Shown: piece by piece, positions 6,525-62,238 of the stretch
How the letters are laid out: each line of letters begins with the position of its first letter
Position numbering within the stretch: position 1 is the first letter of the stretch
Origin: an uncultured Kiritimatiellota bacterium
Lineage (GTDB): Bacteria; Verrucomicrobiota; Kiritimatiellia; RFP12; DVOR01
Direction of reading: 5' to 3'
Length of the DNA: 64,000 nucleotides
Assembly (NCBI GenBank): GCA_944389565.1
Contig: CALXMV010000001.1
Span: forward strand, 51,924-115,923
Notes under the pieces: model-generated
Told to the model about the DNA's origin: nothing
The model's database searches: none
The model's input: only the letters and a program-made list of their open reading frames with translations
Program-made: the position numbers and the translations under genes

Positions 6525-7448
6525 ATGATCGCCGCCCGCCCTGACACGCTTGAGGCGCTCCCGCCGCGTGCCGTCGTCGCCGTCGGGACCTTCGACGGCC
6601 TCCATCTGGGGCACCGCGCGCTTCTGCGCGCGGCCGCCGCCCATGCCCTTGCGGCGGGGCGTCCCTTTTGCGTGCTGACCTTCACGGGCTCCCCGCTGGC
6701 CTTGCTCGACCCCGCGCATATGCCGGGGCTCATCCTCGACCGCGCCGCCCTGTGCGCCGCCCTGCGTGCCGCTTTCCCTGGCGCGACACGCCTCTTCCAA
6801 CCCTTTGACCCAGCCTTCGCGGCGATGCCCGCCGAGGTCTTCGCGGACGCCCTGCGCGGCGCCACCGTCTTCTGCGGGGAGGATTGGCGCTTCGGCGCGG
6901 GCGCGCGCGGCGACGCCGCCTTCCTCCGGTCGCGCGGGCTGGAGGCGTACGTCGTCCCCTACGCGCTTTGGCGCGGCGAACGCGTCTCCTCCAGCCGTAT
7001 CCGCCAAGCCCTCGCGGCGGGCCGTCTCGACGATGCCTCCGCCATGATGGGCCGTCCGTGGGCATTCCGCGGCACGGTCGTCCATGGGCGCGGGCTTGCC
7101 GGCCCGCGGCTTGGCGTCCCCACCGCGAATCTCCGCTTCCGCGGGCGAGACGGGGAGCGGTTGGCCCCGCTCGCGCGCGGCGTTTACCGCGCCACCGCGC
7201 ACCTCCACGAAATCGCCTGGCCCGCGTTGGTCAATTTCGGCGTCGCGCCGAGCCTGAAGGGCGAGCCCGAGCCTTTGCTGGAGGCGCACCTCATCGGCGC
7301 GGCCGGCGATCTCTACGGCGCCACGCTCACCCTGACCATCGACACGCCCCTCCTGCGCCCGGAGCGCAGGTTCCCGGACGTCGCCGCCCTGCGCGCCCAA
7401 ATCCATGCCGACCTTGCCGCCCTGCGCGGCGGCGCACCCACGCCATGA
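6525..7448 (+). CDS. ribF: Bifunctional riboflavin kinase / FAD synthetase
   Basis: VVAVGTFDGLHLGHRALL is the FAD-synthetase nucleotidyltransferase motif. The C-terminus has the riboflavin kinase region (GRGLAGPRLGVPTANL...LEAHLI). Confidence 0.85.
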   Translation: MIAARPDTLEALPPRAVVAVGTFDGLHLGHRALLRAAAAHALAAGRPFCVLTFTGSPLALLDPAHMPGLILDRAALCAALRAAFPGATRLFQPFDPAFAAMPAEVFADALRGATVFCGEDWRFGAGARGDAAFLRSRGLEAYVVPYALWRGERVSSSRIRQALAAGRLDDASAMMGRPWAFRGTVVHGRGLAGPRLGVPTANLRFRGRDGERLAPLARGVYRATAHLHEIAWPALVNFGVAPSLKGEPEPLLEAHLIGAAGDLYGATLTLTIDTPLLRPERRFPDVAALRAQIHADLAALRGGAPTP

Positions 7449-9935: not shown

Positions 9936-10965
9936 CATGAAAAGCGAAGTTCTCTCCCTGCCCGGGGCGATGGCCGCCTCGCCCCTCGCCTGCCTCCTGC
10001 TCGACAAGGCCATCAAGCGCGCCCGCGCCGAGCGCGTCGCCCCCCGCGAGGTCGTCATCTCCGACCAACGCCTCCCCGACGCCCGCCTCCGCAACCGCCT
10101 CATCGCCGAGGCCGCCCTCAACGGTCTCGCCTGCCGCTTCGGCTCCGTGCCCGCCGGCGACACCCCCGACGTCTTCTTCCTTGGCGACCGCCCCCTCTCC
10201 CTCCGCCTCCCCCCCGGCCTGAACGACTGGCACGCCCACACCCAATTCGCCTACTGCGGCCGCGGCATCGACCTGACGGACGCCGCGCGCCTCGCCCTCC
10301 ACCTGGGCGTGGAGACCCAGGGCTTCTCCGAGCACGCCTTCGCCCTCTACTTCCCCTCCGACGCGCTCAAGTTCCGCTGGCAGGGCGACCCAGACGCCGT
10401 GGAGCGCGTCTGGGCCACCCCCGGCCGCGGGCGCATGGCCGCCTACCGCGCCTGGGTGCGCGACCTGCGCCCCCTCCTGGGCCCGCGCGTCCGCTTCGGG
10501 CTGGAGGTGGATCTCTTCGGCGGCGGCCGCTTCTGCCTCGCCCCCGAGGATCTGGAGGGCTGGGACTATCTGATCGGCGCCATCCATGCCGTCGAAGGCC
10601 TTTCCCCCGGCGCCACGCAGGCGCAGGCCGAGGCCGCCTGGATGCGCGACGTCGAGCGCCTCCTCCAACAGCCCATCGCCATCCTCGCCCATCCCCTGCG
10701 TTTCTTCCCGTGGGATGGCCGCCCCACGCCCACCCACCTCTACCGCCCGTTGGCGCGGATGCTTGCCCAGGCGCGCGTCGCCGCCGAGATCAACCACCAC
10801 AAAAACCCCGTCGACCCCGCCTTCTTCCGCATCTGCCTGGAGGAGGGCGTGCGGATCTCCCTTGGCACCGACGCCCACGTCACCCGTTCCGCCGGCGACC
10901 TCCTCCCGCACCTCGAGACCCTCCGTCAGCTCGCCCTCTCCCCCTCCGCCACGCTCCATCCCTAA
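9936..10965 (+). CDS. PHP-domain phosphoesterase (histidinol-phosphatase-like)
   Basis: It contains HAHTQFAYCGRG, GTDAH and other His-rich metal-binding motifs typical of the PHP family. The stop codon lies within a palindromic repeat. Confidence 0.6.
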
Positions 10966-11040
10966 GGGGTTTGCCCCCAAACCCTAAGGGATCCAGCACC
11001 AAACCCTAAGGGGTTCGGGTCGGATCCCTTAAGGGTCAGG
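10958..11040. repeat. Cluster of palindromic repeat units (CCCTAAGGGG / GGGTTTGCCCCCAAACCCTAAGGG / GGATCCCTTAAGGGTCAGG) between convergent genes; likely a bidirectional terminator
   Basis: Seen directly. There are three CCCTAAGGG copies plus one perfect CCCTTAAGGG palindrome, and the GGGTTT-GCCCCC-AAACCC stem-loop motif is shared with the 27.4-kb repeat block. Confidence 0.7.
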
Positions 11041-12265
11041 CTGTTTTCGGGGTCAGAGAGAGGGTGGGGAGGGGGTTGGAGCCGTCGAGGGCGTAGGTGG
11101 TGGCGGTGAGGGTGGTGGGGGTGGCGGCGATGAGGGTGACGGTGGCGGAGGATTCCTTGGGGCCGCCGCCGATGAGGGTGGGGTAGGGGCGGCCGGGAGC
11201 GGGCGGGAGGTGGGAGGCGCGGTGGTCGTGGGCGGCGAGGAGGAGGTCGATTTTGCCCTCGGCGAGGGCGGGGGCGAGGTGTTGGCGGAGGCGGGTGGGG
11301 CCGTGCTTGGCGTCGGAGCGCGGGTCGCCGTTGGTGGGGGGGATGTGGCAGAGGGCGAGGCGTTTCTTGCCGGTCCGCCAAGCGGGGGAACGGACGAGCG
11401 CTTGGGCCCAGGCGCCCTCCTGGGCGATGAGTGCCTCGCATTCCAGGAGGCCGCAGTATTCGCGGTGGGAGTCGACCTTGTCCTCGCCGCTGTCGAGGAT
11501 GAGCAGGCTGAGGGGGCCGAGGTCGAAGGCGGCGTGATAGGCGTCGGTGCCGGCGTAAGGGGCGAAGGCCTCGCGGAGGCGGCGTGCCATGACGCCGCGG
11601 TATTCGTGGTTGCCGCGGGCGAAGAGAAGGGGGATGCCCTGCGCGGTGAGGTCGGCCATGGGGCCGAGGAGGGCTTTGCGGAGGCCCTCGGGGCCGGGCA
11701 CGTTCCCGGCGCAGTCGCCGTTGAGCGCGACGAATGCGGGTTTGGCGGCGGCCACGGCGGGGATGGCGAGGAGTTTGGGGATGAGGGCGGTGTTGGCGTG
11801 GAGGTCGTTGAGCACGGCGAAGGTGAGGGCGCCGTCGGGGCGGATAAGGGCGGGGACGGTGACGATGCCGCCGGCGGATCGCTCGCCGAAACGGGTCCAC
11901 CAAGGATCCATCGTGGTGGCGACGCTTTCGACCTCGAAGCGGAGGGGTTTGGCGAAGTCGACGCCACGGAGGGTGACGAGGTGGTCGGGGCGGTTGGAGG
12001 CGACGAGCCCGTCGACGACGCGGCGGGCGCGGGGCCAGCGGTCGCGCGGGAGGTCGGGGTCTTGGGTCCAGCGGACGGTGCCGGCGCTGGGGGTGGCGGT
12101 GCGCCAGCAGATGGCGAGGGCGTCGCCGCCGACGATCTGGGCCGTGGGGGGCTGGACGAAGGCTGCTTGGTTTTGGGCGGGGGCTTTCTTGGCGGTGGCC
12201 TCGGCGGAGAAGGCGGGGAGGGTGGCGGCGGCGCCGAGGGTGGCGAGGAAGGTGCGGCGGTTCAT
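11036..12265 (-). CDS. Secreted metallophosphoesterase (calcineurin-like / purple acid phosphatase-like) with Tat signal
   Basis: MNRRTFLATLGAAATLPAFS is a twin-arginine signal. GDCAGN, GNHEY and AHDH are metallophosphatase motifs. Confidence 0.7.
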   Translation of the reverse strand: MNRRTFLATLGAAATLPAFSAEATAKKAPAQNQAAFVQPPTAQIVGGDALAICWRTATPSAGTVRWTQDPDLPRDRWPRARRVVDGLVASNRPDHLVTLRGVDFAKPLRFEVESVATTMDPWWTRFGERSAGGIVTVPALIRPDGALTFAVLNDLHANTALIPKLLAIPAVAAAKPAFVALNGDCAGNVPGPEGLRKALLGPMADLTAQGIPLLFARGNHEYRGVMARRLREAFAPYAGTDAYHAAFDLGPLSLLILDSGEDKVDSHREYCGLLECEALIAQEGAWAQALVRSPAWRTGKKRLALCHIPPTNGDPRSDAKHGPTRLRQHLAPALAEGKIDLLLAAHDHRASHLPPAPGRPYPTLIGGGPKESSATVTLIAATPTTLTATTYALDGSNPLPTLSLTPKTA

Positions 12266-19721: not shown

Positions 19722-19816
19722 GGGAAATCCTTTCGAGAAAACGAAAACGCCGTCAGTATACCAAATCCGCCCGCCTTTTGGGAATGCGCCCTGCGCGCGC
19801 CCGTTGGCGCCCGGGG

Positions 19817-24721: not shown

Positions 24722-27409
24722 ATGAAGCGACTCTTGGCTTTGTTGGCGTCCCTGACCGTCGTGGCCACCGCCTCGGCGGAGCGGGAGTACATCGTCTACG
24801 ACCTGACGGCCCGTGAGGCGACGGCGGTCGAGAACCCCGACCCGAAGGACAAACGGTACCATGAGGGGACGGAGATGCTCTTCGTCCGCGACACCGCCGT
24901 CGGCGAGGCCTTCTACATCGGCGTCTGGGAGGTGACGTGCGCCCAGGCCGTCCACCTGGGGTGGGCCACGGCCAATGCGGGCGTGGGGCAGGCGTACGTC
25001 ACGCGGGGCGACGCCGCCACCTACGACTTCGCCCAGAACCATTCGCTCTCCGGTTTCACGGGGCTGAGCCTGCCGACCTTGGGGCAATGGAAGGCCTACG
25101 CGGAGGACGTCCAGCCGCAAGACTCGGTGAACGTGTTTCGCGGAAACTACAATTACGGGATTCGGACCATCGCGGAGTGGTACGGCAAGTACCAGGCGGA
25201 CGTCGAGCCCAACGCCTTTGGCGTCTACGACATCTTCGGCAACGCGGCGGAGTACGCCTCCACCGACGGCCTCTTCCACGGCGGCTACGCGCAGAGCTCG
25301 TGCGACTACTCCGACTCCCACGACGCCGTCGCGTACGCGGGGAAGACGGCCTCGGCCCTTTCCGCCCTCGGCGATTTCCTCGGTGCGCGGCTTGTCTACA
25401 CGCCGCCGGCGGAGCGCACCTACACCGTGACGGTCACGCTTGACGGCGAGCCCGTGGCGGGGTGGGACGCCTCGCACGGCTACAAGGCCGGCGAGCGGGT
25501 GACGCTCCCCGAGCCGACCCTCGCGGCCTTCCACCGCCTCGCCGAGCCGACCGTCACGCCCGAGGGGCTCGAGATCGACGCGGATCGCTCCTTCCTCATG
25601 CCGGCGGAGGATGTCACGGTCGCCTACGCGTCCGTCCCTTACGCCATCGTCCAGGCCGTCGACGCCACCGTCTCCGACCCCACGCCTGCCGCGGGGGCGA
25701 CCGTCACCCTCACCGCCGCCGCCTCGGAGCCGTGGCGCACCCTCGCCGGCTGGGAGGCCTCCGAGGGCGCCACCGCCCCCGAGGGCGCGCCCGCCACCTT
25801 CGAGTTCCGAATCCCCGAGACGATCCAAGGCGGCGAGACGTACACCTTCACCGCCCGCTTCGTCACCGCCCCACGCGTCCTGGTCTACGGCGGCACCGTC
25901 GCGGTCGGTGAGGGCGAGGATCTCGGCGACGGCTTCTACTCCGTCGGCGCGGCACTCACCCTCACCGCCCCGGCCACCCTCAATGGCGGCGAGTACCGTT
26001 TCGAGGCCTGGGTCGACGCCACCGGCGAGCCGATCCCCACCCGTGCCACCTGCCAGGTCACCGCCGGCGCCAACGGCACCGTCGCCACCTACGCCGCCAC
26101 CTATGCCCTCGACGAGGAGGGCGTCCAGGGTGCCGTCATCGACATCGCCTCCACGACGGACGAGGAGGGCGCCCCCGCCGCCTGGCCGCTCTTCGGCTCC
26201 CTGCCCGACGAACGGCAGACCTCCGTGCCCGACCCTTACGGCAACACCTATCGCCATTTTTCCTATCACGATGCCGGCCCGCTCGCCAGCTTCTCCCTCG
26301 ACGATGGCACCCTGACCTATCCCGAGGCGGCCTCCGAGGGCGGCGTCCCCACCGTCGACACCACCGACGAGGGGCTGACCCGGAAACTCCAACTCCGCCG
26401 CGTGGCGCCCGCCGAGGGCAAGGACTTCTACCTCGCCGTCCATGAGGTGACCATCGGCCAAATGGCGCGTGCCTACAAGCGCACCGGCACCACGCTGCAC
26501 TATGATTCCGGCGATGCCTGCGTCGCCTGCACCGCCAATGAGTTCTACCTGCCGGGCTATGAGGATCCATGGCCCACCAAGGTCACGGCGACGATCGCCA
26601 AGGCATTGGGGCGCGACTTCCGCCAGCCCACCAAGGCGGAGATCCGCGCCATCGGCGATTCGGCGCGCGAGACCAACGCGAACGCCGGCCTCGGCGCCGA
26701 GCGCGATGAGGAGATCACGCGGAAGATGGTCGTCTGCCATCCCTCCGCCATCGCCAAACCCGCCTCGAGGGAGGCGGATCCCTACGGTTTCTACGACCTC
26801 TGGGGCAATGGCTATGAGTACGCCGGCGATGGCACCGTCTTCGGCGGCTGTTACGGGAGCCAGTTCGGCGAATGCAATCTCGACACGGTCTTTAATCATC
26901 CCTCCAACACGCTTCTTGCCGCGCGGCCGTTGCTGGAGGTGGAGACGCCCGTGACGCTTCGCTTGGAGGATGAGGACGGGCGGACGCTCCAGGGCATCGC
27001 CGGCAAGCGCCTCTTCCCCGAGGGCGTGGCCACGCCCGAACGCGCGGGCCATGCCTTCGCCGGCTGGACGCTCGGCGGCGAGGCCATCCCCCTCGATCAC
27101 GTGCTCCGGGCCGAGGACGACGGCAAGGTCCTCGCCGCCACCTGGACGCCAAACGCCACGGCCATCAAGGTCATCTACCACGACGGCCTCTCCGGCCCGG
27201 AGACCGTCTATCCCGGCATGGCCACCCGCATCTACGCCCCCGCGGGCAAGACCATCGCCACCCTCACCGTCCGGGGCACCGAGAGCGCCGTGTGGGACCC
27301 CGAGACCCAGACCCTCACCATCCCCGCCGACGCCCCCGACACCCTCACGGTCAACGCCACCTTCGCCGAGCCCGCCCCCACGCCCGGCTTCCGCCTCATC
27401 CTGCGCTGA
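24722..27409 (+). CDS. Secreted protein with two formylglycine-generating-enzyme (FGE/SUMF1)-like domains and Listeria-Bacteroides-repeat-like beta domains
   Basis: It has the signal peptide MKRLLALLASLTVVATASA. Domain 1 is FYIGVWEVTCAQA...FGVYDIFGNAAEYA and domain 2 is KDFYLAVHEVTIGQMARAY...YGFYDLWGNGYEYAGDG, both with the FGE-sulfatase fold pattern. HAFAGWTLGGEAIPLDHVL is a Flg_new-like repeat. The listed ORF start at 24641 (GTG) is probably upstream of the true start. Confidence 0.65.
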   Translation: MKRLLALLASLTVVATASAEREYIVYDLTAREATAVENPDPKDKRYHEGTEMLFVRDTAVGEAFYIGVWEVTCAQAVHLGWATANAGVGQAYVTRGDAATYDFAQNHSLSGFTGLSLPTLGQWKAYAEDVQPQDSVNVFRGNYNYGIRTIAEWYGKYQADVEPNAFGVYDIFGNAAEYASTDGLFHGGYAQSSCDYSDSHDAVAYAGKTASALSALGDFLGARLVYTPPAERTYTVTVTLDGEPVAGWDASHGYKAGERVTLPEPTLAAFHRLAEPTVTPEGLEIDADRSFLMPAEDVTVAYASVPYAIVQAVDATVSDPTPAAGATVTLTAAASEPWRTLAGWEASEGATAPEGAPATFEFRIPETIQGGETYTFTARFVTAPRVLVYGGTVAVGEGEDLGDGFYSVGAALTLTAPATLNGGEYRFEAWVDATGEPIPTRATCQVTAGANGTVATYAATYALDEEGVQGAVIDIASTTDEEGAPAAWPLFGSLPDERQTSVPDPYGNTYRHFSYHDAGPLASFSLDDGTLTYPEAASEGGVPTVDTTDEGLTRKLQLRRVAPAEGKDFYLAVHEVTIGQMARAYKRTGTTLHYDSGDACVACTANEFYLPGYEDPWPTKVTATIAKALGRDFRQPTKAEIRAIGDSARETNANAGLGAERDEEITRKMVVCHPSAIAKPASREADPYGFYDLWGNGYEYAGDGTVFGGCYGSQFGECNLDTVFNHPSNTLLAARPLLEVETPVTLRLEDEDGRTLQGIAGKRLFPEGVATPERAGHAFAGWTLGGEAIPLDHVLRAEDDGKVLAATWTPNATAIKVIYHDGLSGPETVYPGMATRIYAPAGKTIATLTVRGTESAVWDPETQTLTIPADAPDTLTVNATFAEPAPTPGFRLILR

Positions 27410-27453
27410 ACGTCGGCGACTTGAAACCTCCCGGAGGGTTTGGGGCCACCCCC

Positions 27454-27573
27454 GAACCCTCCCGACTTTCACCCCGAACCCTCCCGACTTCCGGGTCAGA
27501 CCCTTAAGGGTTTCGCCCCAGACCCTCCCGACTTCCGGGTCAGACCCTTAAGGGTTTCGCCCCAAACCCTCCC
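27454..27573. repeat. Tandem palindromic repeat block (unit about 44 bp, GACCCTCCCGACTTCCGGGTCAGACCCTTAAGGGTTTCGCCCCA, two full copies plus partial copies)
   Basis: Seen directly. It contains the perfect palindrome CCCTTAAGGG and the GACCC...GGGTC inverted repeat, and shares GGGTTTCGCCCCAAACCCT with the 10.96-kb repeat. Confidence 0.8.
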
Positions 27574-27582
27574 ATGCGGGAT

Positions 27583-27593
27583 TGTGGTATCAT
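27583..27593 (+). promoter_or_regulatory. Extended -10 promoter element TTGTGGTATCAT placed about 7 nt upstream of the ATG at 27601 (predicts a leaderless mRNA for the giant gene)
   Basis: gggaTTGTGGTATCATgcatggcATGAGACTG is seen directly. The same element occurs in front of nusA, gpmI and the VWA gene. Confidence 0.5.
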
Positions 27594-27600
27594 GCATGGC

Positions 27601-30600
27601 ATGAGACTGTGGCGCACGGGTCGGTTGCTGACGTGGGCGATGGCGTTTGCCGTCGTGGGCGGCGCGCGCGGCGTTGGGTTGGCGCCGGGGGTGTGCCCGA
27701 CGAATCTGACTTGGGCGGTGGAGGCCTATGCGGGGGCGGATTGGGGCGCCTGGGAGGCGCGTGTGGCCGCGGACGCGGAGGGGCTGGCGGCGGTGGCACG
27801 CGAGATCCCACCCACGCCGCCGGGGATGGTGACCTACATCGAGCAAACGGCCGAGGAGTTGCCGGAGGCGTTGGCGGCGTGCACGAACGCGGCGCCAAGC
27901 GTGTTGGTGGGGGGCGTCCGGGCGTGGGATTTCCGGGTGGCGGAGCGGGTGGCCGCGGATGGCGCGCGGGCGTTTCTGACGTTTGCGGGGGAGACGGTCT
28001 TCCATGCGCAGGGGGTGCCGGCCGACTTCGACGCGGAGGCATGGGCGTTGGCGGCCTACACGGAGGATGGGCGCCTGCCGGAGACGGTGGCCGGCGACGC
28101 GGCGCGGCGGGAGGAGTGGTTCGCCATGCGGGGGCGGGAACGGCTGGGCCTGGCGTATACCTTCGTGGAGCGGGGGCGGCTGGAGGATTACGTGGCGGCG
28201 CGCGAGGCGGAGGCCGCGGCGCGTGAGGAGGCCTGGGAGGAGGAGGGCGCGGCGGGGGCGTGGGGCTTCGGGGTGCGGGAGATGGAGGTGGGCGCCGGGG
28301 AGATGGCGTTCGGCTTCTGCGACCCGGCGGGGTCGGATCTGTACGTGTTGGGGCGGAAGAGCCTGGAGGCGTGGGACGATTGGGCGCTCATCGGCAAAGT
28401 CGAGGCGGAGGGGCGGCGATGGGTGGCCTTCGGGTTGCCGATGGACATGCATTTCTGGAAGTTCCTGGATGCCTCGCTGGACAGCGACGGGGACGGCATC
28501 GCGGACGGTCTGGAGGTGGGGTGGTTCGGGACGGACCCCCTGCGGGCGGACACGGCCGGAAGCCTGATCGACGACTGGCGGAAAATCTACGTGTATGGCA
28601 TGGACGCGCGGGTGGCGGACACCGACGGGGACGGTCTGCCGGATGGCTGGGAGCTGCTGAACGGCCTCGACCCTTACGCGGCGGACGCGGAGGGGGACCC
28701 TGACGGGGACGGGATCGCCAACCGTCTGGAATTGGCCTATGGGACCGACCCGCAACGGGCGGATTCGGACGGGGACGGTTTGGGCGACCGTGAGGAGACG
28801 GGGTGGGCGGAGGTGACCCATGGCGTGGGGCCGGTGGCGGCGGGCACGGGGCGTGTCGCGCTCGCGGAGGGCGTGGCGGTGGGCCTGCCCTCCCAAATGC
28901 GTCTGGGCGGCCGCGCCTACGCGCGCGTCGAGGCCTCGCGGTCGGGCGTGGTGCGGCTGCTCGGCGAGTTCCCGATCGCCATCCGGGTCTTCCCGGAGGG
29001 GATGGCGTGGCCGGAGGCGTTCCGCGCGGGAATCTTCGCGTGGGAGGCGGAGGAGGGTTTCGTCATCGCCTTCGAGAACGTCGGTCTGCCGGGGGAGCCC
29101 GCGACGACGCTGGGGCGCGCGCAGGTCATCCTTCGGGCGGATTCCGGGGGCGTGGAGGTGCGCTACACGACCCTGCAGGGTGGCCTCGCCGCGCTCACGG
29201 GGGTCGGCGCGAGGCGGCCGGACGGCCGTTTTGGCGAACTGCTCGACCCCGGCACGGTGACCTTGGGCGATTGCGTGACCTACCGCTTCGGCGCGGGCTC
29301 CGACCCGACGCTCCCGGACACCGACGGCGACGGGGTGGAGGATGGCGCGGAGGTCGCGGCGGGCCGGTCGGCCCCAGGCCCGGACGACGACTTCGACGGT
29401 CTGCCCGATCGGTGGGAGCGGCGCTTCGGCCTTGACCCCCTCTCCGCCTCGGGCGCGGATGGCGCGGCGGGCGACCCCGACGGCGACGGGCTCCCGAACC
29501 TGCGCGAGCACGCCCTGGGCACCGACCCGACCGCCGTGGATTCCGACGGCGACGGGCTGGGCGACGCCGCGGAGGTGGGCGCCGTCACGCGCCGCACGCA
29601 CGTCGCCCCCATGGATACCTCCGCGGGGCGGGTGGTGGCGGTCTATGACAGGGAGGCCACCGCCGGCTATGTGTTTTTCGACCTGCCCTTCCCCGTGCGG
29701 GTGGGCGGGGCGGACTATCCGCGCGTGGGGCTCAACATCGACGGCGTGCTCACGTTCGTGCCAGCCGGCGAGACCGCGGTGCGCTTCCCCTCGGCACGGC
29801 GGGCGTTGGGCGAGACGCCCCTGGACACGCGTTACCCCTCCCTCGCGCTCTACTGGGCGGATCTGATGGTGGCGGAGGCCTTCCGCTCGGAACTGCGCGT
29901 CGTGGAGATGCCGGGCGAGACGGTCGTCGTCGAGTGCCTGAACTTGGCCAAGCAGGGCGGTTTCGCCTTCCTGGCCTGGCCGGAGCCCGCGACCTCTTTG
30001 GCGCGTATCCAGGTCATCATCCCGCGCGACGCGGACGCCGCCGGCATCGAGGTGCGCTACACGACCCTGCAGGGCGGTTTCGACGGCGCTGAGGCCACCC
30101 TCGGGGCGCAGTTCGGCACGCAGGCGATCGACCTGGCGCACAATCTGCTCGGCGCCGTCGCCATCGGCGACGCCATCACCTACCACCCCGGCACCGGCAC
30201 GGATCCCGCACGCGCCGACACCGACGGCGACGGGTTGGGCGACGCCGCCGAGTTGCGGCTGGGCCTCGACCCGAAGAACCCGGACCTGGATGGCGACGGC
30301 TTGGCGGATGGCTGGGAGGTCGCCTGGGGGCTTGACCCGCACGTGCCCGATGACCATGCCGCCGATTGGGACGGCGACGGCATCTCCAATTACGTGGAGG
30401 CCCAGTGGGGCACGAACCCGCGCGCGGCGGATTCCGATGGCGACGGCGTCGGCGACGCGGCCGAGATCGCGCAGGGGAGCGACCCCGCCGACGCCTCGGA
30501 CGGGGGCATGGCGGGGCGTTACGTCAAGGTCGCCCTCACGTTCGGCGACCCCAGCGCGAGCGCCTCCGAGAAATACGCCGTCGAGGTGTGCCAGACCGTG

Positions 30601-32682
30601 GGCGAGGGCAGCGGGGAGGCCGCGCCCAAGCGCCTGGAGAACCTGATCTCCGACGGCGCGGAGACGCGCGAGCTCCTCCTCCGCCCCGACGCGGCCTACA
30701 CGGTGACGCTCCGGCACCTCTCCTCGAAGGCCGCGGAGGCCGACCACGACTACACGCTCACCGTCCGCTGCCCGGTCGTCGCCGCGGGCACGCAGGTCGT
30801 CATCGAGGATCCGGAGTCCCTGCTCGGCACGTATGCCACGGGCGGCTCCGCCACGCCCGACACCTACACGGGCAAGGCCGTCACGCTCTATTGCCTCACG
30901 CCGACCCTGACCCCGGATCATGACCGCGACCTCACGTTCGGCCCCATCGACGAGGCGTACGTCGCGGCGGGCACCCCCCTGCCGGTGTGGGTCAATTCGG
31001 ATCATGACCATGAGGACCCCGAGGGCGTCAACGACGGTTCGGAGGCCTCGCAACCCCTGCCCGACAACTTCATTGAGGGGATCCTTTCAGGCGCCTTCGA
31101 TTGCGACGACCTAACCGTGAACGGGCAGTCCGACCTGGAGGACTTCTTCCCCGTGCGCCTGCGGTTGGGCGCGGCGCTGACGGCTTTCCTGGCGGCACAC
31201 CCGCAGGCCACCGCGCACTTGGAGACCGGCCCATGGGAGGGGGCGCTGCACGCGTTGTGGTGCCATGACGGCACGGAATCCGTCCAACGCTTCTTCGACG
31301 CGTCCGCGGGTGGCGGCCGCTACGGCGAGGAAGGGCGGGAGGCCCGTTGGGAGGCGGAGGTCGCCGAGCTGACGGACGGGCTGTTCGGGGACAGGACGCG
31401 CATCCCCCCGCAGGTGCTCGCCACCGCCCAGGCCTCGGAGCGCGGCGACGTGCCGCTCTTCGTCGAGGCGTGCGCCGAGGGCACGCTGACGCTCCGCCTG
31501 CGCGTGCGGGAGGAGTCGGTGGAGGCGCTGGGCGAGGAGGGGAGGATCCTGACGGAATGCGCCTTCGACAGCCGTTTCGTCGAGGCGTGCTATGCCGTGC
31601 TGAATCTGCGCGAGGACACGCCGCAACGTGTCGACCCCGCCGTCGAACGCGCTGAAAAGCCCGACGTGACCGTCTGCCTCGTGCATGGGTACAACGTCTC
31701 GGAGACCGACGCGGCCGAGTGGTTCAACGCCGTCTACAAGCGCCTCTGGCGCTCCGGCTCGACAGCCCGCTTCTGCGGCGTCGTCTGGCGCGGCGACGAC
31801 CAAGGCGTCATCCTGCCGGATTACTATCGGAACGTCGCGAACGCCTTCGATGCCGCGGGGGCGTTCGCCACGGCGCTGGATGCGATCCCCGGGCGCAAGG
31901 TCGTCCTGGCGCACAGCCTCGGCAATATGCTCGTCTCCGCCGCGCTGCAGGATCACGACGCCCCCATCGACGCCTACTTCATGCTCAATTCCGCCGTCCC
32001 CGCCGAAGCCTACGACCCCGCACCGTCCTCCCCGGGCTTCTCCGTCGCCGGCGTCCCCGCCGGCCTCATCCACGATGCGTGGCGCAACTATGACCCCAGG
32101 AGTTGGTCCGCGCTCTGGCATCGGCATTTCCTCCCGCATGAGGGCTTCGCGCCGACCGCCGCCGACGCCGCCCGCGCCACCCTCACCTGGAAGGGCCGCT
32201 TCGAGGACGTGCTCACCGGCCGGGGCGCGAAGGTCTTCCACGTCTACTCGCGCGGCGCGGGCGAGACGAGCGGCGACGAGGTCTTCGAGCTCCTGGGCAC
32301 GACCCCCTCCCCGCTGAGCGGTTTCGACTGGACCGACCTCAAGACCAAAGGCCGTCACGCGTGGCAGAAGCAGGAATGCTGGAAAGGCCGCCGCGAGGCA
32401 AGCGCCCTCGCCCTCGCGGCCTCCGAGGAGATGGGATGGGGCTTCGATGGTGCCGCCGCCGACGTCTCCGCGGAAGCCTCCGCCTCGTTGGGCGAGGCCG
32501 CCTACCGCCAAGCACCCCTCTTCTGCCGCCAGCCCCCCGAAATCCTCGGCGACGACCCCAACGCCATCCTCGACCTCCGCAACACCCTCCTCGCCCGCGC
32601 CATCCCCGCACTCTCCAACGCCGCCGGAAAAACGGATCTTCCAGGCCTTGCTGAGGGCGATCAATTCGACTGTCAAACCTAG
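27601..32682 (+). CDS. Giant secreted Ca-binding protein with multiple thrombospondin type-3-like (DxDxDGxxDxxE) repeats, two ~280-aa repeated modules, and a C-terminal alpha/beta-hydrolase (lipase/esterase-like) domain
   Basis: It has the signal peptide MRLWRTGRLLTWAMAFAVVGGARG. TSP3-like repeats include DTDGDGLPDGWE, DPDGDGIANRLE and DSDGDGLGD. The module ...IQVI(L/I)...GIEVRYTTLQGG occurs twice. The C-terminus has VCLVHGY (oxyanion HG) and VVLAHSLGNML (GxSxG nucleophile elbow). The start could alternatively be 27592 or 27574. Confidence 0.75.
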   Translation: MRLWRTGRLLTWAMAFAVVGGARGVGLAPGVCPTNLTWAVEAYAGADWGAWEARVAADAEGLAAVAREIPPTPPGMVTYIEQTAEELPEALAACTNAAPSVLVGGVRAWDFRVAERVAADGARAFLTFAGETVFHAQGVPADFDAEAWALAAYTEDGRLPETVAGDAARREEWFAMRGRERLGLAYTFVERGRLEDYVAAREAEAAAREEAWEEEGAAGAWGFGVREMEVGAGEMAFGFCDPAGSDLYVLGRKSLEAWDDWALIGKVEAEGRRWVAFGLPMDMHFWKFLDASLDSDGDGIADGLEVGWFGTDPLRADTAGSLIDDWRKIYVYGMDARVADTDGDGLPDGWELLNGLDPYAADAEGDPDGDGIANRLELAYGTDPQRADSDGDGLGDREETGWAEVTHGVGPVAAGTGRVALAEGVAVGLPSQMRLGGRAYARVEASRSGVVRLLGEFPIAIRVFPEGMAWPEAFRAGIFAWEAEEGFVIAFENVGLPGEPATTLGRAQVILRADSGGVEVRYTTLQGGLAALTGVGARRPDGRFGELLDPGTVTLGDCVTYRFGAGSDPTLPDTDGDGVEDGAEVAAGRSAPGPDDDFDGLPDRWERRFGLDPLSASGADGAAGDPDGDGLPNLREHALGTDPTAVDSDGDGLGDAAEVGAVTRRTHVAPMDTSAGRVVAVYDREATAGYVFFDLPFPVRVGGADYPRVGLNIDGVLTFVPAGETAVRFPSARRALGETPLDTRYPSLALYWADLMVAEAFRSELRVVEMPGETVVVECLNLAKQGGFAFLAWPEPATSLARIQVIIPRDADAAGIEVRYTTLQGGFDGAEATLGAQFGTQAIDLAHNLLGAVAIGDAITYHPGTGTDPARADTDGDGLGDAAELRLGLDPKNPDLDGDGLADGWEVAWGLDPHVPDDHAADWDGDGISNYVEAQWGTNPRAADSDGDGVGDAAEIAQGSDPADASDGGMAGRYVKVALTFGDPSASASEKYAVEVCQTVGEGSGEAAPKRLENLISDGAETRELLLRPDAAYTVTLRHLSSKAAEADHDYTLTVRCPVVAAGTQVVIEDPESLLGTYATGGSATPDTYTGKAVTLYCLTPTLTPDHDRDLTFGPIDEAYVAAGTPLPVWVNSDHDHEDPEGVNDGSEASQPLPDNFIEGILSGAFDCDDLTVNGQSDLEDFFPVRLRLGAALTAFLAAHPQATAHLETGPWEGALHALWCHDGTESVQRFFDASAGGGRYGEEGREARWEAEVAELTDGLFGDRTRIPPQVLATAQASERGDVPLFVEACAEGTLTLRLRVREESVEALGEEGRILTECAFDSRFVEACYAVLNLREDTPQRVDPAVERAEKPDVTVCLVHGYNVSETDAAEWFNAVYKRLWRSGSTARFCGVVWRGDDQGVILPDYYRNVANAFDAAGAFATALDAIPGRKVVLAHSLGNMLVSAALQDHDAPIDAYFMLNSAVPAEAYDPAPSSPGFSVAGVPAGLIHDAWRNYDPRSWSALWHRHFLPHEGFAPTAADAARATLTWKGRFEDVLTGRGAKVFHVYSRGAGETSGDEVFELLGTTPSPLSGFDWTDLKTKGRHAWQKQECWKGRREASALALAASEEMGWGFDGAAADVSAEASASLGEAAYRQAPLFCRQPPEILGDDPNAILDLRNTLLARAIPALSNAAGKTDLPGLAEGDQFDCQT

Positions 32683-32822
32683 ATTGTGAATGATGCGAAG
32701 CGTCCGTGGGTTCAGCGTTCAGGAGAGTTGAAAGAGCGATGGCTACATTCAGATGTGAAGGATGTGGCTTATCCATTAACGCTCCCACTTTTTCAGTTCA
32801 TGATTCAGAAAGGAAAGTTGAA

Positions 32823-33941
32823 ATGAGAATGTTTGTGGCTTGCCTCTCGCTGTCGGTAGCCGTGGTACTTTACGCGGAGACGCCTTATGAGCGTAATGAA
32901 CGTTATCAAGGTGCGCAGGCAACCCTTCAATTGACCGTTCGGGATGACCGAGGGGAGCCCGTTGAGGATGCTCGTGTGGAGGCTTCTTTTTGGAACCCGT
33001 TTCAGAATCCGACACGTGTGCAAATTGGCCATACCGATGATGCCGGGACAGTCTCTTTTACGGGAGAGGGTTACTCGGACACGCATTATTATGTTGGAAA
33101 AGATGGATATTATGGAAGTCGCGGAAGGGCGGTGCTCGAAAAACCTGACAAGGACCCCGAGCATTTTTGGGAACGGCTCAGGTGGGAGCCGGTGATTCGT
33201 GACATTACGCTCAAGAAAAAGCGGAATCCCATCGAAGGATTCTTGCATATAGGCATCGAACTCAAAACACCGGCGCTCAATCGTCCCGTGTGGTTTGACC
33301 TTGAGGCCTTCGATTGGTTGCCTCCTTATGGCGAGGGGGTTCACCGTGATGTCGCCATAACCTTGCAGACCGCACGCGTGCAAATAAGGGGGTATGAAGC
33401 CGACAGAATCGCCAAGGCGTGTTTTGCTTTTCCCAATCCGCATGATGGCGCACAGCGTTGCGATGCGGATATCCAATCCTATCACGAAGTGGGATATCAT
33501 GTGAATACGGCCAAGCCATTCGTCAACCCCATGATTCTTGAGGCAGATTTTACGAGAAGTCACGACAAATTTCTTCCTTACACAAGCTATCTGACATTTC
33601 GTGTCAGAAGCAAATGCGATGAGAATGGGAACCTCGTCTCCGCACAGTATGGCTTCATGTATCGCTTTTCGGTTACGGAGGAATGCTTCACAGCCTCTCT
33701 GCTTTTCCTCAATCCCACGCCGAATGACACGAACATCGAATACGATCTCAAGCGGAGCCTGGCGAAATCGGATGCCGATCGCAAGTGGGAGGCTAGGCAG
33801 AAATGTCTTGAGAAACGGTTTGAGGAGGAGCGGAAAATGCTGGAGGAGATGGGTGTGGAGAACTTCATCAGGGCGATACGGGCGAAACGGAGCGGCGCTT
33901 CCGGCACGCCCAAGCAGGAAGCGAAGGGAGCGGCGGAATGA
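32823..33941 (+). CDS. Secreted paralog 1 of a three-member tandem family (signal peptide, N-terminal transthyretin/CarbopepD_reg-like beta-sandwich, variable middle, conserved charged C-terminal tail)
   Basis: It starts MRMFVACLSLSVAVVLYA/ETPY and carries an aaaggaaag RBS. It is low in GC (about 50-55%). The N-terminal ~150 aa are identical to paralog 3 and the C-terminal ~70 aa are shared by all three. Confidence 0.7.
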   Translation: MRMFVACLSLSVAVVLYAETPYERNERYQGAQATLQLTVRDDRGEPVEDARVEASFWNPFQNPTRVQIGHTDDAGTVSFTGEGYSDTHYYVGKDGYYGSRGRAVLEKPDKDPEHFWERLRWEPVIRDITLKKKRNPIEGFLHIGIELKTPALNRPVWFDLEAFDWLPPYGEGVHRDVAITLQTARVQIRGYEADRIAKACFAFPNPHDGAQRCDADIQSYHEVGYHVNTAKPFVNPMILEADFTRSHDKFLPYTSYLTFRVRSKCDENGNLVSAQYGFMYRFSVTEECFTASLLFLNPTPNDTNIEYDLKRSLAKSDADRKWEARQKCLEKRFEEERKMLEEMGVENFIRAIRAKRSGASGTPKQEAKGAAE

Positions 33942-35035
33942 GAACGTTTGTGGCTTGCCTCTCGCTGTCGGTGGCCGTTTCCCTTTACGCGGAGACGCCT
34001 TATGAGCGTAATGAACGTTATCAAGGTGCGCAGGCAACCCTCCAGCTGACGGTGCGTGACGACCGAGGGGTGCCAGTGGAAGGGGCCTATGTGCAAGCGC
34101 ATTTTTGGCAGCCGACCTCGGATGCGGCCGCTGTAGGCGCATACACCGACGAAAAAGGGTACGCGAACGTCGTGGGTAATGGGTATACAGATGTCCGATA
34201 TTCTGTGAGCAAAGATGGGTATTACAGGACTCGCGGGAGTGCGCGATTGTCGCTTCCCGAAAATGATCCAACGCCTTTTTGGAAAGATTATCAGTGGGCA
34301 CCCATCATAAGAGAAACCGTGATTAGGAAAGTCCGCCGCCCGGTCTCTGGGGTGCTTCATCTTGGCGAATGGCTGTCGCCTCCCCAGACAGATGTGCCTA
34401 TCGGGTTGGATTTGCAACTTATGGATTGGATGCCGCCCCACGGTCGGGGAAGCCATTGTGATGTCGTGGTCAAGTTTGTGACGCGGACACTGCGTGACAA
34501 TGGGCACGCATGGGAGGTTGTCGATTCAATCGCATTGGAGTTCCCTAATGAGCACGATGGTGTTTTGCTTTGTGATGCGGCACCCTATTCGGCATTCATC
34601 ACTCCCTATCATGTTCCTGAGAACGGAGATTTCGTGGCGTGTTACAGACTGACAGCATCGGAGAAGGAGGGAACCTTTTTTCTGCCAGATACGCAAACAC
34701 TCCTTTTCCGGATTCGGAGCAAAGAGGGTGCAGGCGGTGCAATCGTCTCTGCTCATTATGGCTCAATTTTTCGTTGTGTCATGACGGGTGGAATGGTTTC
34801 CATGGATGTTTTCCTCAATCCCACGCCGAATGACACGAACATCGAATACGACCCCAAGCGGAGTCTGGCGAAGTCGTATGCCGACCGCAGGTGGGAGGCC
34901 ACGCAGAAGCGTCTTGAGGAGGAGCGGAAAATGCTTGAGGAGATGGGCGTGGAGAACTTCATCAGGGCGGTGCGGGCGAAACGGAGCGGCGCTTCCGGCA
35001 CGCCCAAGCAGGAAGCGAAGGGAGCGGCGCAATGA
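33938..35035 (+). CDS. Secreted paralog 2 of the tandem family (divergent after residue ~45, conserved C-terminal tail)
   Basis: It starts MRTFVACLSLSVAVSLYAETPYERNERYQGAQATLQLTVRDDRG and ends ...FLNPTPNDTNIEYDPKRSLAKSYADRRWEATQKRLEEERKMLEEMGVENFIRAVRAKRSGASGTPKQEAKGAAQ. Its start has an ATGA overlap with paralog 1. Confidence 0.7.
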   Translation: MRTFVACLSLSVAVSLYAETPYERNERYQGAQATLQLTVRDDRGVPVEGAYVQAHFWQPTSDAAAVGAYTDEKGYANVVGNGYTDVRYSVSKDGYYRTRGSARLSLPENDPTPFWKDYQWAPIIRETVIRKVRRPVSGVLHLGEWLSPPQTDVPIGLDLQLMDWMPPHGRGSHCDVVVKFVTRTLRDNGHAWEVVDSIALEFPNEHDGVLLCDAAPYSAFITPYHVPENGDFVACYRLTASEKEGTFFLPDTQTLLFRIRSKEGAGGAIVSAHYGSIFRCVMTGGMVSMDVFLNPTPNDTNIEYDPKRSLAKSYADRRWEATQKRLEEERKMLEEMGVENFIRAVRAKRSGASGTPKQEAKGAAQ

Positions 35036-36138
35036 GAACGTTTGTGGCTTGCCTCTCGCTGTCGGTAGCAGTGTCCCTTTACGCGGAGACGCCTTATGAG
35101 CGTAATGAACGCTATCAAGGCGCGCAGGCGACCCTGCAATTGACCGTTCGGGATGACCGAGGGGAGCCCGTTGAGGATGCTCGTGTGGAGGCTTCTTTTT
35201 GGAACCCGTTTCAGAATCCGACACGTGTGCAAATTGGCCATACCGATGATGCCGGGACAGTCTCTTTTACGGGAGAGGGTTACTCGGACACGCATTATTA
35301 TGTTGGAAAAGATGGATATTATGGAAGTCGCGGAAGGGCGGTGCTCGAAAAACCTGACAAGGACCCCGTGCATTTTTGGGAACGGCTCAGGTGGGAGCCG
35401 GTAATCCGTGATGTCACGCTCAAAAAAATACGACACCCAATATCAGGGTTTTTGCATCACAATATTCCACTCACACCTCCTTGTCTCAATCAACCAATAG
35501 GATTGGATTTTGAGCGTTGGGACTGGTTGCCGCCTTATGGGATGGGGAAGCATGAAGATGTCAAAATCACGTTCGAGGCACAACGCGTCGTCCAACCCAA
35601 CTTTTCTAAAGACTTGGTTATTGCCATCCATTTCGCGTTTCCCAATCCAAATGATGGTATGCAAATCTGCCCTGCGGATACTTTTTCAACTTTCGTTCCC
35701 ACTTATCACGTTGATGCCCAAAAACCATTTATGAATACTGTTTCTTTTTATCGGCAAAAACCTTCAGAACAATATCAGTTTCTGGCTCACACCTCTTATC
35801 TGGCTTTTCGGGTTCGTAGTCAGAAAGGTGATGCGGGGATGTTCGTGGCGCATTATGGATTTATATATCAACTTCTTGATATCTCAGATCAAGAGTTTTG
35901 CCCGACTATTGTCTTTTTCAATCCCACGCCGAATGACACGAACATCGAATACGACCCCAAGCGGAGTCTGGCGAAGTCGTATGCCGACCGCAGGTGGGAG
36001 GCCACGCAGAAGCGTCTTGAGGAGGAGCGGAAAATGCTGGAGGAGATCGGCGTGGAGAACTTCATCAGGGCGATACGGGCGAAACGGAGCGGCGCTTCCG
36101 GCACGCCCAAGCAGGAAGCGAAGGGAGCGGCGGAATGA
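35032..36138 (+). CDS. Secreted paralog 3 of the tandem family (N-terminus identical to paralog 1, unique very low-GC middle, conserved C-terminal tail)
   Basis: It has ATGA overlaps with paralog 2 upstream and with the small protein downstream. The middle region is about 43-48% GC. Confidence 0.7.
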   Translation: MRTFVACLSLSVAVSLYAETPYERNERYQGAQATLQLTVRDDRGEPVEDARVEASFWNPFQNPTRVQIGHTDDAGTVSFTGEGYSDTHYYVGKDGYYGSRGRAVLEKPDKDPVHFWERLRWEPVIRDVTLKKIRHPISGFLHHNIPLTPPCLNQPIGLDFERWDWLPPYGMGKHEDVKITFEAQRVVQPNFSKDLVIAIHFAFPNPNDGMQICPADTFSTFVPTYHVDAQKPFMNTVSFYRQKPSEQYQFLAHTSYLAFRVRSQKGDAGMFVAHYGFIYQLLDISDQEFCPTIVFFNPTPNDTNIEYDPKRSLAKSYADRRWEATQKRLEEERKMLEEIGVENFIRAIRAKRSGASGTPKQEAKGAAE

Positions 36139-38734: not shown

Positions 38735-39754
38735 GTGAAGAAATCCATGAAGAAGATCCCCGCGAAGGGCAAGCCCGCCGCCCGCCACAACGGTCTGGGA
38801 CGCGGGTTCGACGCGCTCATCGGCGGCCCGTCTCCCGCGCCCGCCGCGCCCGTGCCCGCCCGCCCCGCGCTGGCCGCGGCCATCGCCAAGCCCGCGCCCG
38901 CGCCCGAGGAGCCCCCGCGGGATGGGCGCGTGGTCGGCTCCGTGCTGAAGGTGCCGACGGCCGAGATCGTGCGCTCGCCGTGGCAACCGCGCCAATTCTT
39001 CGACGAGGCGGCGCTGGCCGACCTGGCCGAGTCCATCAAGGCCAACGGCATCATCCAGCCGTTGCTCTGCCGGCGGTTGGACGATGGCCGCTTCGAGCTG
39101 ATCGGCGGCGAGCGGCGTCTGCGCGCGGCGGGCATGGCCGGCCTGGAGCAGGTGCCGGTCATCCTCATCGAGGCCGAGGACCGCAAGGCCGCCGAGCTCG
39201 CGATCGTCGAGAACATCCAGCGTGCCGACCTCAACGCCATCGAAGAGGCGGAGGGCTACCGCACGCTCACCGAGACCTTCGGGCTGTCGCAGGGCGACGT
39301 GGCCGACCGCGTGGGCAAGGCCCGCACCACGATCGTCAACGCCATGCGCCTGCTCGACCTGCCCGACGAGACCAAGGCGATGGTGGCCGACGGCCGCCTC
39401 TCCACCGGCCAGGCCAAGGCCATCCTAGGCCTGCCGCGCACGGAGGACCGCATCCGCCTGGGGCGCCGGGCCGTCTCCGAGAATCTCACGGTGCGCGCGC
39501 TGGAGCGGATCGTCACGCAGCTGACCACGCCCCTGCCCGACCCCGCGCGCGCCGCGGCCAAGAACGACCTGCCGCCCGCCTACCTGCGCGACCTCACCGA
39601 CCGCCTGCACGCGCGCTTCGGCACGGCCGTCCGCGTGACCTCGGGGCGCACCCTGCCGAACGGCCGCCACGCCAAGGGGACCTTGGAGGTGGATTTCTAC
39701 GACAACGCGGACCTGGATCGCATTCTGGCCCTGCTGGGCGTGAAGATGGACTGA
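38735..39754 (+). CDS. parB: ParB/Spo0J family partition protein (no adjacent parA)
   Basis: IQPLLCRRLDDGRFELIGGERRLRAAGMAGLEQVPV is ParB box II, the GERRxRA CTP-binding motif. An HTH (LSQGDVADRVGKARTTIVNAMRLL) follows. The start is GTG at 38735 or ATG at 38747. Confidence 0.8.
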   Translation: MKKSMKKIPAKGKPAARHNGLGRGFDALIGGPSPAPAAPVPARPALAAAIAKPAPAPEEPPRDGRVVGSVLKVPTAEIVRSPWQPRQFFDEAALADLAESIKANGIIQPLLCRRLDDGRFELIGGERRLRAAGMAGLEQVPVILIEAEDRKAAELAIVENIQRADLNAIEEAEGYRTLTETFGLSQGDVADRVGKARTTIVNAMRLLDLPDETKAMVADGRLSTGQAKAILGLPRTEDRIRLGRRAVSENLTVRALERIVTQLTTPLPDPARAAAKNDLPPAYLRDLTDRLHARFGTAVRVTSGRTLPNGRHAKGTLEVDFYDNADLDRILALLGVKMD

Positions 39755-62224: not shown

Positions 62225-62238
62225 TTTTGTGGTATCGT
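62225..62238 (+). promoter_or_regulatory. Extended -10 promoter TTTTGTGGTATCGT placed 7 nt upstream of the ATG at 62245 (leaderless-type), in the divergent mraZ/VWA intergenic region
   Basis: tgcgTTTTGTGGTATCGTatgggcATGAGACGT is seen directly. The geometry is the same as at 27583. Confidence 0.5.

Follow-up and report, generated by a model that had tools for sequence, protein, structure and literature searches.

The described systems closest to the repeat reported here are the iteron arrays of pPS10, R6K and ori-lambda, the MIRU-type VNTRs of Mycobacterium tuberculosis, the neisserial NIME/dRS3 and Correia repeats, and the RAYT-associated REP/BIME palindromes of Enterobacteria and Pseudomonas. 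Iteron arrays contain at least four direct repeats at ∼22-bp spacing; pPS10 and ori-lambda are both iteron origins, and in ori-lambda each repeat is a dyad. MIRUs are tandem direct repeats of tens of bp, found at several intergenic loci, with unit numbers that are polymorphic between strains. NIME/dRS3 and Correia repeats form mosaics of short inverted-repeat arrays near surface-protein genes, vary between strains, and are hotspots for recombination and mobile-element insertion. REP/BIME sequences are short, imperfect intergenic palindromes that occur in arrays, often right after stop codons, and can give rise to stable stem-loops in read-through RNA. They are also the target of site-specific insertion by IS110-family elements, which recombine at a CT core; IS621 enters REP in this way (PMC11208160).

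A repeat with likenesses to each of these systems was found at two places in a 64-kb stretch of DNA (the window) from an uncultured gut Lentisphaerota lineage. One copy (block A) lies at 10.96 kb and the other (block B) at 27.4–27.6 kb, between a gene for a secreted protein and a giant gene. We consider it fairly probable that block B belongs to a dispersed intergenic repeat family of the REP/BIME/MIRU/NIME kind, specific to Spyradenecus-type Lentisphaerota, and that it is a copy expanded locally, with a structural role. The family unit is 22 bp long, repeats head to tail, and is built on the palindrome (A)AACCCT-(A/TA/AA)-AGGGTT(T).

In block B, Tandem Repeats Finder reported a period of 44 over positions 27467–27573 (2.4 copies, 93% matches, score 193), with period-22 sub-rows listed within it, and the 43-mer ACCCTCCCGACTTCCGGGTCAGACCCTTAAGGGTTTCGCCCCA occurs there in two exact copies (27478–27520 and 27522–27564) where shuffled sequences are expected to contain none. 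The palindromic repeat block noticed in the first-pass annotation of this DNA is therefore real. Its description as ∼44-bp units occurring twice exactly holds for the 43-mer, but the 44-mers differ at their first base (A versus G, the sole mismatch) and the array naturally divides into units of 22 bp, with six in-phase starts of ACCCT, at 27456, 27478, 27500, 27522, 27544 and 27566, the last copy ending at 27570. Both palindromes that the annotation had placed within the units were located, CCCTTAAGGG at 27501 and 27545, and GGGTCAGACCC at 27493 and 27537. Read on the plus strand, the array consists of a degenerate first 22-bp unit, ACCCTCCCGACTTTCACCCCGA (27456–27477), two copies of the 44-bp unit (27478–27565), and a last partial unit, ACCCTCCC (27566–27573). 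Each 44-bp copy joins two differing 22-bp sub-units, ACCCTCCCGACTTCCGGGTCAG and ACCCTTAAGGGTTTCGCCCCAR, the second reading ACCCTTAAGGGTTTCGCCCCA(G/A) across the copies. The motif GGGTTT..CCCCAAACCCT has four occurrences across the window (10967, 27435 on the minus strand, 27508 and 27552), against an expectation of 0.03. A literature search with the motif strings returned chance primer matches only, and the literature on Lentisphaerae repeats and on Spyradenecus yielded nothing relevant. The block-B-specific pattern ACCCTCCCGACTT-N9-ACCCT-N17-ACCCT had 0 matches in JGI metagenomes; the species was found only in ENA, Logan and NCBI assemblies.

Block A (10958–11040, plus strand) is made of four 22-bp units, CCCTAAGGG at 10960, 10982 and 11004 and CCCTTAAGGG at 11026, which fill the entire gap between two convergent genes encoding a PHP protein (9937–10965, plus strand) and a metallophosphoesterase (11036–12265, minus strand). 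Both stop codons touch it, the TAA at 10963–10965 lying inside unit 1 and the minus-strand stop (11036–11038) right after unit 4. By direct reading, CGGGTC(R)GA(Y)CCCTTAAGGGT is common to blocks A and B at 19 of 21 positions. Further members were sought by scanning one genome per species with the pattern GGGTTTNNCCCCARACCCT, and the matches listed included at least nine loci of Candidatus Spyradenecus faecavium (a high-GC MAG, Lentisphaerota, DVOR01). The window comes from a relative of this MAG, since it shares 80% nucleotide identity with one Spyradenecus contig over 1.45 kb, the only syntenic match between the Spyradenecus loci and the window. The many low-GC Clostridia matches to the same pattern were ruled out as family members, their motif being unrelated, and the core motif had only three matches in viral contigs, which is chance level.

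Each of the at least nine Spyradenecus loci holds one copy of an element of ∼140 bp, the copies being ∼85–90% alike over ∼120 bp. The element begins with a C-rich lead-in, continues with four 22-bp units with unit-specific spacers (cores, in order, CCCTAAAGGG, CCCTAAGGG, CCCTAAGGG and CCCTTAAGGG) and ends in a tail that is conserved and richer in AT, of which there are two variants, one being TTTCGGAAATCCATCnGCACTTATTTCAAATCCGCCCCTC. Because the unit-specific spacers and the 45-bp tail are common to the Spyradenecus copies, the element must have been copied in its entirety. With an HMM derived from the Spyradenecus copies, block A was recovered at E = 2e-14 (nhmmer) and block B at E = 5e-8, the palindromic nature of the units accounting for the better score on the minus strand; both window blocks are without the tail. 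The shared motif, the 22-bp array and the HMM match thus make the 10.96-kb block a member of the family, as had been suggested. Besides the two copies within the 64 kb of the window, the at least nine loci in the related MAG bear out the proposal of a dispersed family.

The family meets the known systems only part of the way. Like REP/BIME it has short units (22 bp, with palindromes of 11–17 bp), and 11 of the 11 copies examined (two in the window, nine in Spyradenecus) are intergenic. Unlike REP/BIME, its units have no GTAG/GGAG head, start with (A/G)AACCCT and follow each other head to tail every 22 bp instead of alternating, and what is copied in S. faecavium is an entire, fixed element of four units with a unique 45-bp tail. 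No RAYT or other transposase was present among the window genes scanned directly or annotated via orthologous contigs. The likeness to MIRUs lies in the variable unit number, block B having 1.5, 2 or 3 copies of the 44-bp unit and block A three or four units; in contrast to MIRUs, the units are palindromic, shorter (22/44 bp) and not in-frame mini-ORFs between operon genes, and whole copies of the family are gained and lost between strains. Compared with the neisserial repeats, the sequence is unrelated, the 20-bp dRS3 flanking structure is lacking, and there is neither the TA target duplication nor the terminal inverted repeats of Correia MITEs.

Variation between strains was followed in five assemblies of the window's own species, reached via a cluster of flanking proteins, by aligning the intergenic region end to end. 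The block B alleles differ by whole 22-bp registers: contigs L110/L111 have 1.5 copies of the 44-bp unit (gap of 161 bp), the window and L184/L185 two copies (182 bp), and L182/L183 three copies (205 bp), L182 having a full 44-bp unit in place of the degenerate first one. Block A has four units in the window and three in other strains of the species. Whole copies vary too. In S. faecavium, one copy lies just upstream of the ruvB promoter in L177/L042 and is absent from L176. A different repeat of ∼200 bp stands at that site in L176, whose PHP protein is the same and whose ruvB is 97% identical in nucleotide sequence. No arrays were seen in 6–21 kb from each of four relatives (66–77% PHP identity). 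From the strain variation, the presence or absence at ruvB and the array-free relatives, it therefore follows that the family is young, lineage-restricted and unstable. The REP/BIME-like and recombination-hotspot readings of the first-pass annotation fit these comparisons, in unit number as in presence or absence. Copying to many intergenic loci, with copies coming and going between strains, and the gain or loss of 22-bp units by slippage or unequal recombination would produce such a pattern.

A separate kind of event has affected block A. In strains L187–L191 of the window's species, its three-unit version is split by an AT-rich insertion with the junctions AAACC-CT/.../CT-TAAGGGTCAG (the slash marks the junction). 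The left junction reads ...CCCAAACC-CT/ATAGATAAGGCGG... and the right one ...ATATAGTTGA/CT-TAAGGGTCAGG; the ends of the insertion, AAACC-CT/ATAGATAAGG... and ...ATAGTTGA/CT-TAAGGG, are not inverted repeats. When the target is rebuilt by comparing these strains with the window, it proves to be the final palindromic unit, AAACCCTTAAGGGT, with a CT on either side, and the circle junction rebuilt by joining the ends reads TTGACT-N15-TAATAT. The contigs of three assemblies stop 78–99 bp inside the insertion on both sides, which in the k87 assembly is less than k-1, and for this reason the insertion is considered multi-copy. Judged from its end sequences it is probably an IS110-family element, since a CT core flanks it on either side, its ends lack inverted repeats and a predicted promoter spans the circle junction, although an IS607-type element, with a serine transposase, could give the same junctions. 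The insertion end had no match in viral contigs. The possibility that the Spyradenecus tail is a remnant of insertion ends was ruled out, there being no significant similarity between them.

The arrays thus appear to be a landing site for a CT-core insertion sequence, possibly a natural IS110/REP-type pairing outside Proteobacteria. One might go further and propose that they persist mainly as safe-harbour landing pads co-evolving with an RNA-guided IS110-type recombinase, AAACC-CT-TAAGGG being the programmed target as REP is for IS621. The CT flanks of a multi-copy insertion that lacks terminal inverted repeats, its position in the last block A unit, the circle junction, and the targeting of REP by IS621 at a CT core (PMC11208160) all point that way. 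We nevertheless hold this to be quite improbable: the insertion was seen at one site only, the contigs end inside it before any sequence for a transposase or bridge RNA is reached, the 95 nt of insertion examined contain no clear guide matching the target, an IS607-type serine transposase could account for the junctions, and the proposal explains the users of the arrays and not the existence of the arrays.

On its 5′ side, block B follows the stop codon of a gene at 24722–27409 (plus strand) encoding a secreted protein of 895 aa with InlB-B-repeat/FGE-like relatives, whose translation is identical to a database protein (P0101). The first-pass annotation called it an FGE gene; its own product has no Pfam match, and FGE-sulfatase matches (PF03781) appear only in some of its distant homologues, which also carry PF18998. 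On the 3′ side lies the giant surface-protein gene (27601–32682, plus strand; ∼1694 aa), with TSP3_bac repeats (Pfam, 2e-38) and an alpha/beta-hydrolase-like region. Gene callers place its start at ATG 27592 (the gene call in L110). Since ATG 27601 is only 7 nt past the −10 element, the giant-gene mRNA is probably leaderless from this codon, the transcription start being a prediction from the promoter sequence; the same leaderless pattern is common to the promoters at 62230, 14891 and 1309.

The predicted promoter (27576–27593, plus strand) consists of an upstream element, GCGGGATTG, and an extended −10, TGGTATCAT. The motif gcg..aTTtg-TGGTAnnnT precedes at least nine other genes of the window, none of them with an array, and in several of these the ATG is 6–7 nt after the −10; examples are the gene starts at 1350, 8703, 44415 and 62230 on the plus strand and at 19763, 17217, 14891 and 1309 on the minus strand. 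The proposal that TTGTGGTATCAT is a promoter element is credible on this account, and its TGn-TAnnnT, which precedes the start here and recurs before other genes of the window, is that of a sigma-70 extended −10. The promoter sequence is invariant among the strains compared except for a T-to-G change in L184/L185. A simple −35/−10 scan found nothing at block B because this promoter has no −35. The further proposal that the block carries the promoter of the giant gene does not stand: GCGGGATTG-TGGTATCAT is generic and unlike the repeat units, which end next to it at about −28 from the inferred transcription start. The promoter is thus a predicted generic extended −10 which the array merely abuts, and the array would not be needed for the gene. 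In the Spyradenecus tail, inspection by eye gave no convincing match to a sigma-54, ECF or Bacteroidetes-type promoter.

The arrangement at this promoter could also be taken as an operator or iteron-like array, in which the palindromes would bind a putative lineage-specific dimer on one face of the helix, with the last site over the −35 region, repressing or activating the giant gene and other array-adjacent genes. The six in-phase ACCCT motifs reach −31 from the inferred start, that of the last partial unit falling on the usual −35 position; the core sequence is kept while the spacers vary; and in seven of the eight Spyradenecus copies that could be scored, the tail points towards a gene start. 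The layout of four palindromic units and an AT-richer tail may be likened to that of iteron origins, and similar ACCCTAAGGGT arrays with family-specific symmetric extensions exist in unrelated metagenomic contigs. Several observations are nevertheless difficult to reconcile with such a role. Block A fills a convergent gap that has no promoter, a copy may be present in one strain and missing from another of its species, one and the same promoter can have differing numbers of units beside it, the at least nine promoters of identical type are array-free, and no regulator gene is nearby. Moreover, the distance from array to promoter is not fixed (from 25 to >300 bp), and the palindrome centre may be TAA, TAAA or TTAA, which shifts the half-site spacing by 1 bp, a change that dimeric regulators rarely tolerate. 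We therefore regard an operator array as unlikely, if worth keeping in mind. A parS or centromere role was also rejected: a parB gene is present in the window, but no parS-like site was found within three mismatches, and the presence/absence polymorphism of the arrays is against it.

The reading we prefer, that of a structural repeat, places the local effect in RNA. A hairpin, GGAGGGTTTGGGG-CCAC-CCCCGAACCCTCC (27433–27462, plus strand; 13-nt arms, 92% complementary), with a predicted MFE of −28.1 kcal/mol (z = −5.1), begins 24 nt past the stop codon of the upstream gene and is made of the family's GGGTTT/AAACCC motifs; it is a candidate 3′-end structure for the upstream transcript. The palindromic sub-units of block B pair into a further helix (−38 kcal/mol, z = −4.2), and block A folds with −46 and −50 kcal/mol on the two strands. 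Folding of the units, which the first-pass annotation had suggested as a check, thus gave stable stem-loops, with z-scores of −3.6 to −5.1 for the arrays overall. RNA reading through from the upstream gene would fold into the 27433–27462 hairpin and the paired palindromic units, and these stem-loops could halt RNA polymerase or make it pause, or could hold back 3′ exonucleases, so that the leaderless promoter of the giant gene would be insulated from read-through. We infer that stem-loop formation in read-through RNA (termination, pausing, 3′-end protection, insulation) is the most likely local effect, because copies sit right after stop codons and because a true terminator is replaced at block A. 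At block A, and probably at L034, L036 and L050, a stop codon is found inside the element or at most 4 bp away; for the last three loci the check relied on stop-to-stop ORF ends. As to the replacement, the relative L174 (same synteny, 74% identity), which offers the only filled-versus-empty orthologous comparison, has a canonical bidirectional intrinsic terminator, AAAAAAAGGGCGGGCCCGGATGGGTCCGCCCTTTTT, exactly at the block A site. In L175 and L179, hairpin terminators follow the PHP gene.

The suggestion that block B terminates the upstream gene is plausible: the hairpins are strong and a true terminator occupies the block A site in a relative, but a canonical U-tract is lacking. After the 27433–27462 hairpin comes only CGACTTTCA, and an intrinsic-terminator test over 27000–28000 found no terminator-like site, strong hairpins notwithstanding. 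Block A gave one marginal match (11023–11037 plus TGTTTT), at chance level, as were the terminator-like matches across the window. Canonical terminators do occur in this clade. The arrays might instead be unusual intrinsic or Rho-assisting bidirectional terminators that arose in place and came to be alike through convergence. Strong stem-loops on both strands, the terminator of L174 at the block A position, the stop codons that abut several copies, and the reading of each unit as A3-CCC-loop-GGG-T3, like a miniature bidirectional terminator, would agree with this. It is improbable, since the unit-specific spacers and 45-bp tail shared by at least nine Spyradenecus copies imply whole-element copying, many copies are in divergent promoter regions, U-tracts are missing, and in L008 the element is already closely preceded by a canonical terminator.

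The folding z-scores of −4 to −5 might further suggest a small structured RNA or riboregulator, be it the array itself or a product encoded by it. This appears very unlikely indeed. Rfam detected no family in the window (gathering thresholds) or at nine related loci (E ≤ 1); RNAalifold, applied to nine Spyradenecus copies, predicted that the units pair with each other but showed no covariation; no dedicated promoter or terminator accompanies the array; and the number of units varies among strains.

Not all observations sit easily with a structural repeat. The missing U-tracts, in a clade that has canonical terminators, and the terminator retained just before the L008 element count against it as well, and about five of the nine Spyradenecus copies adjoin divergent gene starts, a setting in which no transcript should end. 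The bias of the tail towards gene starts would not be predicted for a passive element, and in the nine Spyradenecus copies the core sequence itself is conserved beyond pairing, with no compensatory changes. No transposase or other mobilising function was found for the family, and the element has neither terminal repeats nor target duplications. Finally, a DNA-binding protein phased along the helix would also be served by units set strictly 22 bp, or two helical turns, apart. The arrays as phased binding sites, with one palindrome per two helical turns, for a putative Spyradenecus-clade DNA-binding protein are an idea that we think unlikely. Were it true, the protein could mobilise the 140-bp element or be a nucleoid or regulatory protein, changes in unit number could tune or switch expression of the variable surface-protein locus, and the (T)ACCCTAAGGGT(A) 22-bp arrays found elsewhere could reflect a widespread, undescribed protein–DNA system.

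As a structural repeat, the family is a previously undescribed one of a familiar bacterial kind; no new mechanism is demonstrated, and current concepts would stand unchanged unless a dedicated binding protein were found. It has some practical bearing. The arrays break short-read assemblies, many contigs ending there (L111, L183, L186 and L177 end inside arrays, and three short-read contigs break within block B); they may serve as VNTR-like markers for strain typing, and they mark rearrangement hotspots adjoining the variable surface-protein locus. The predicted promoter consensus of the organism and the suggested frequency of leaderless starts may help annotation.

The likeness to iteron arrays, which in the Spyradenecus copies includes an AT-richer segment alongside the repeats, does not extend to an origin. 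In contrast to iteron origins, the family has many chromosomal copies between housekeeping genes, and neither DnaA boxes nor a true AT-rich unwinding element; the flanks carry housekeeping or surface-protein genes and no rep gene, and the window copies are without the AT-rich segment. A metagenome scan with CCCTAAGGG-N12-ACCCTAAGGG returned 58 loci with GC contents of 0.33 to 0.73. Many of them are arrays of three to nine 22-bp units built on a (T)ACCCTAAGGGT(A) core; the units extend symmetrically in a family-specific way, their flanks are conserved, and the genes next to them are ordinary housekeeping ones among which no partner protein recurs. Since the search pattern itself fixed core and period, these ACCCTAAGGGT arrays are not taken as evidence for a superfamily. 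One of the array-bearing contigs, of 5.4 kb, is plasmid-like, and the arrays there look like true iterons.

At block A, the 22-bp palindromic array at 10958-11040, each flanking gene has its stop codon within a repeat unit or immediately abutting one (window positions 10963-10965 and 11036-11038); the PHP gene, for example, ends at the TAA of CCCTAAGGG. The same arrangement probably exists at two loci from other assemblies, L036 (~199-201) and L050 (~1532), as judged from the ends of stop-to-stop ORFs only. Because of this placement, turnover of the repeats could change the C-termini of the encoded proteins. In other strains of the species, a multi-copy, AT-rich insertion (L187, 11071-11165; L190, 4173-4262; also L188, L189 and L191) interrupts block A within its final palindromic unit, at a point orthologous to ∼11028 of the window. 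The insertion is flanked on either side by CT, no terminal inverted repeats were found at its recovered ends and, judged from those ends, it is IS110-like; joining of the ends would create a TTGACT-N15-TAATAT promoter.

Arrays with a 22-bp period and the core (T)ACCCTAAGGGT(A) recurred in the JGI metagenome contigs (L112-L169), which span GC contents from 0.33 to 0.73. Their spacers are specific to each contig family while the flanks are conserved, housekeeping genes adjoin them, and the core is symmetrically extended as TACCC..GGGTA, GACCC..GGGTC or CACCC..GGGTG. The scan pattern itself fixed both core and period, and this recurrence is either an over-representation or a product of the search pattern chosen. 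One of these contigs, L168 (JAEEGF011095383.1, 5471 bp), is small and plasmid-like, with overlapping ends, and was grouped with L115, L157 and L159; its GGCAACCCTAAGGGGGTTGTGT direct repeats, which adjoin a gene for a 193-aa HTH protein, look like genuine plasmid iterons. A parB gene is present in the window (38735-39754; ParB_N plus HTH_ParB), and canonical parS (TGTTTCACGTGAAACA, allowing up to 3 mismatches) is absent throughout the 64 kb.

Among loci L004-L109, a highly conserved motif consists of cttgGGGTTTCACCCCAAACCCTga followed by a variable hairpin (for example in CAKQPE01 contigs and in L010, L014, L026 and L074). One Clostridia MAG holds more than 35 copies of this motif, which is also found in Bacteroidia, Chloroflexota and Myxococcota MAGs and matches no Rfam family. 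Spyradenecus faecavium-type genomes carry a second dispersed repeat of ∼200 bp, unrelated to the palindromic array (L176, 276-480 on the minus strand and 6790-7000; L178, 1642-1852); the site upstream of ruvB holds this repeat in L176 and the palindromic array in L177 and L042.

Immediately 3′ of the giant gene (27592-32682) lie three tandem paralogous genes (32706-36138), each encoding a secreted protein of ∼365 aa; they share 55-71% identity, and their GC content is 0.50-0.55 versus ∼0.70 for the genome. Copy number differs among strains, with one in L184 and L185, two in L182 and three in the window. The giant-gene orthologues in L184 (8929-14147) and L185 (8893-14111) were each called as two overlapping ORFs (757 and 1001 aa), and the promoter -10 there reads GATCAT versus TATCAT; from sequence, the gene may be inactivated in this lineage.

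Promoters of the window organism follow the consensus gcg(g)aTT(t)g-TGGTAnnnT and lack a -35 element at the window sites (plus strand: 1350, 8703, 27585, 36675, 44415 and 62230; minus strand: 19763, 17217, 14891 and 1309). At several of the genes (62230, 14891, 1309 and 27585) an ATG lies 6-7 nt downstream of the -10, an arrangement suggesting that leaderless mRNAs are frequent in the organism.
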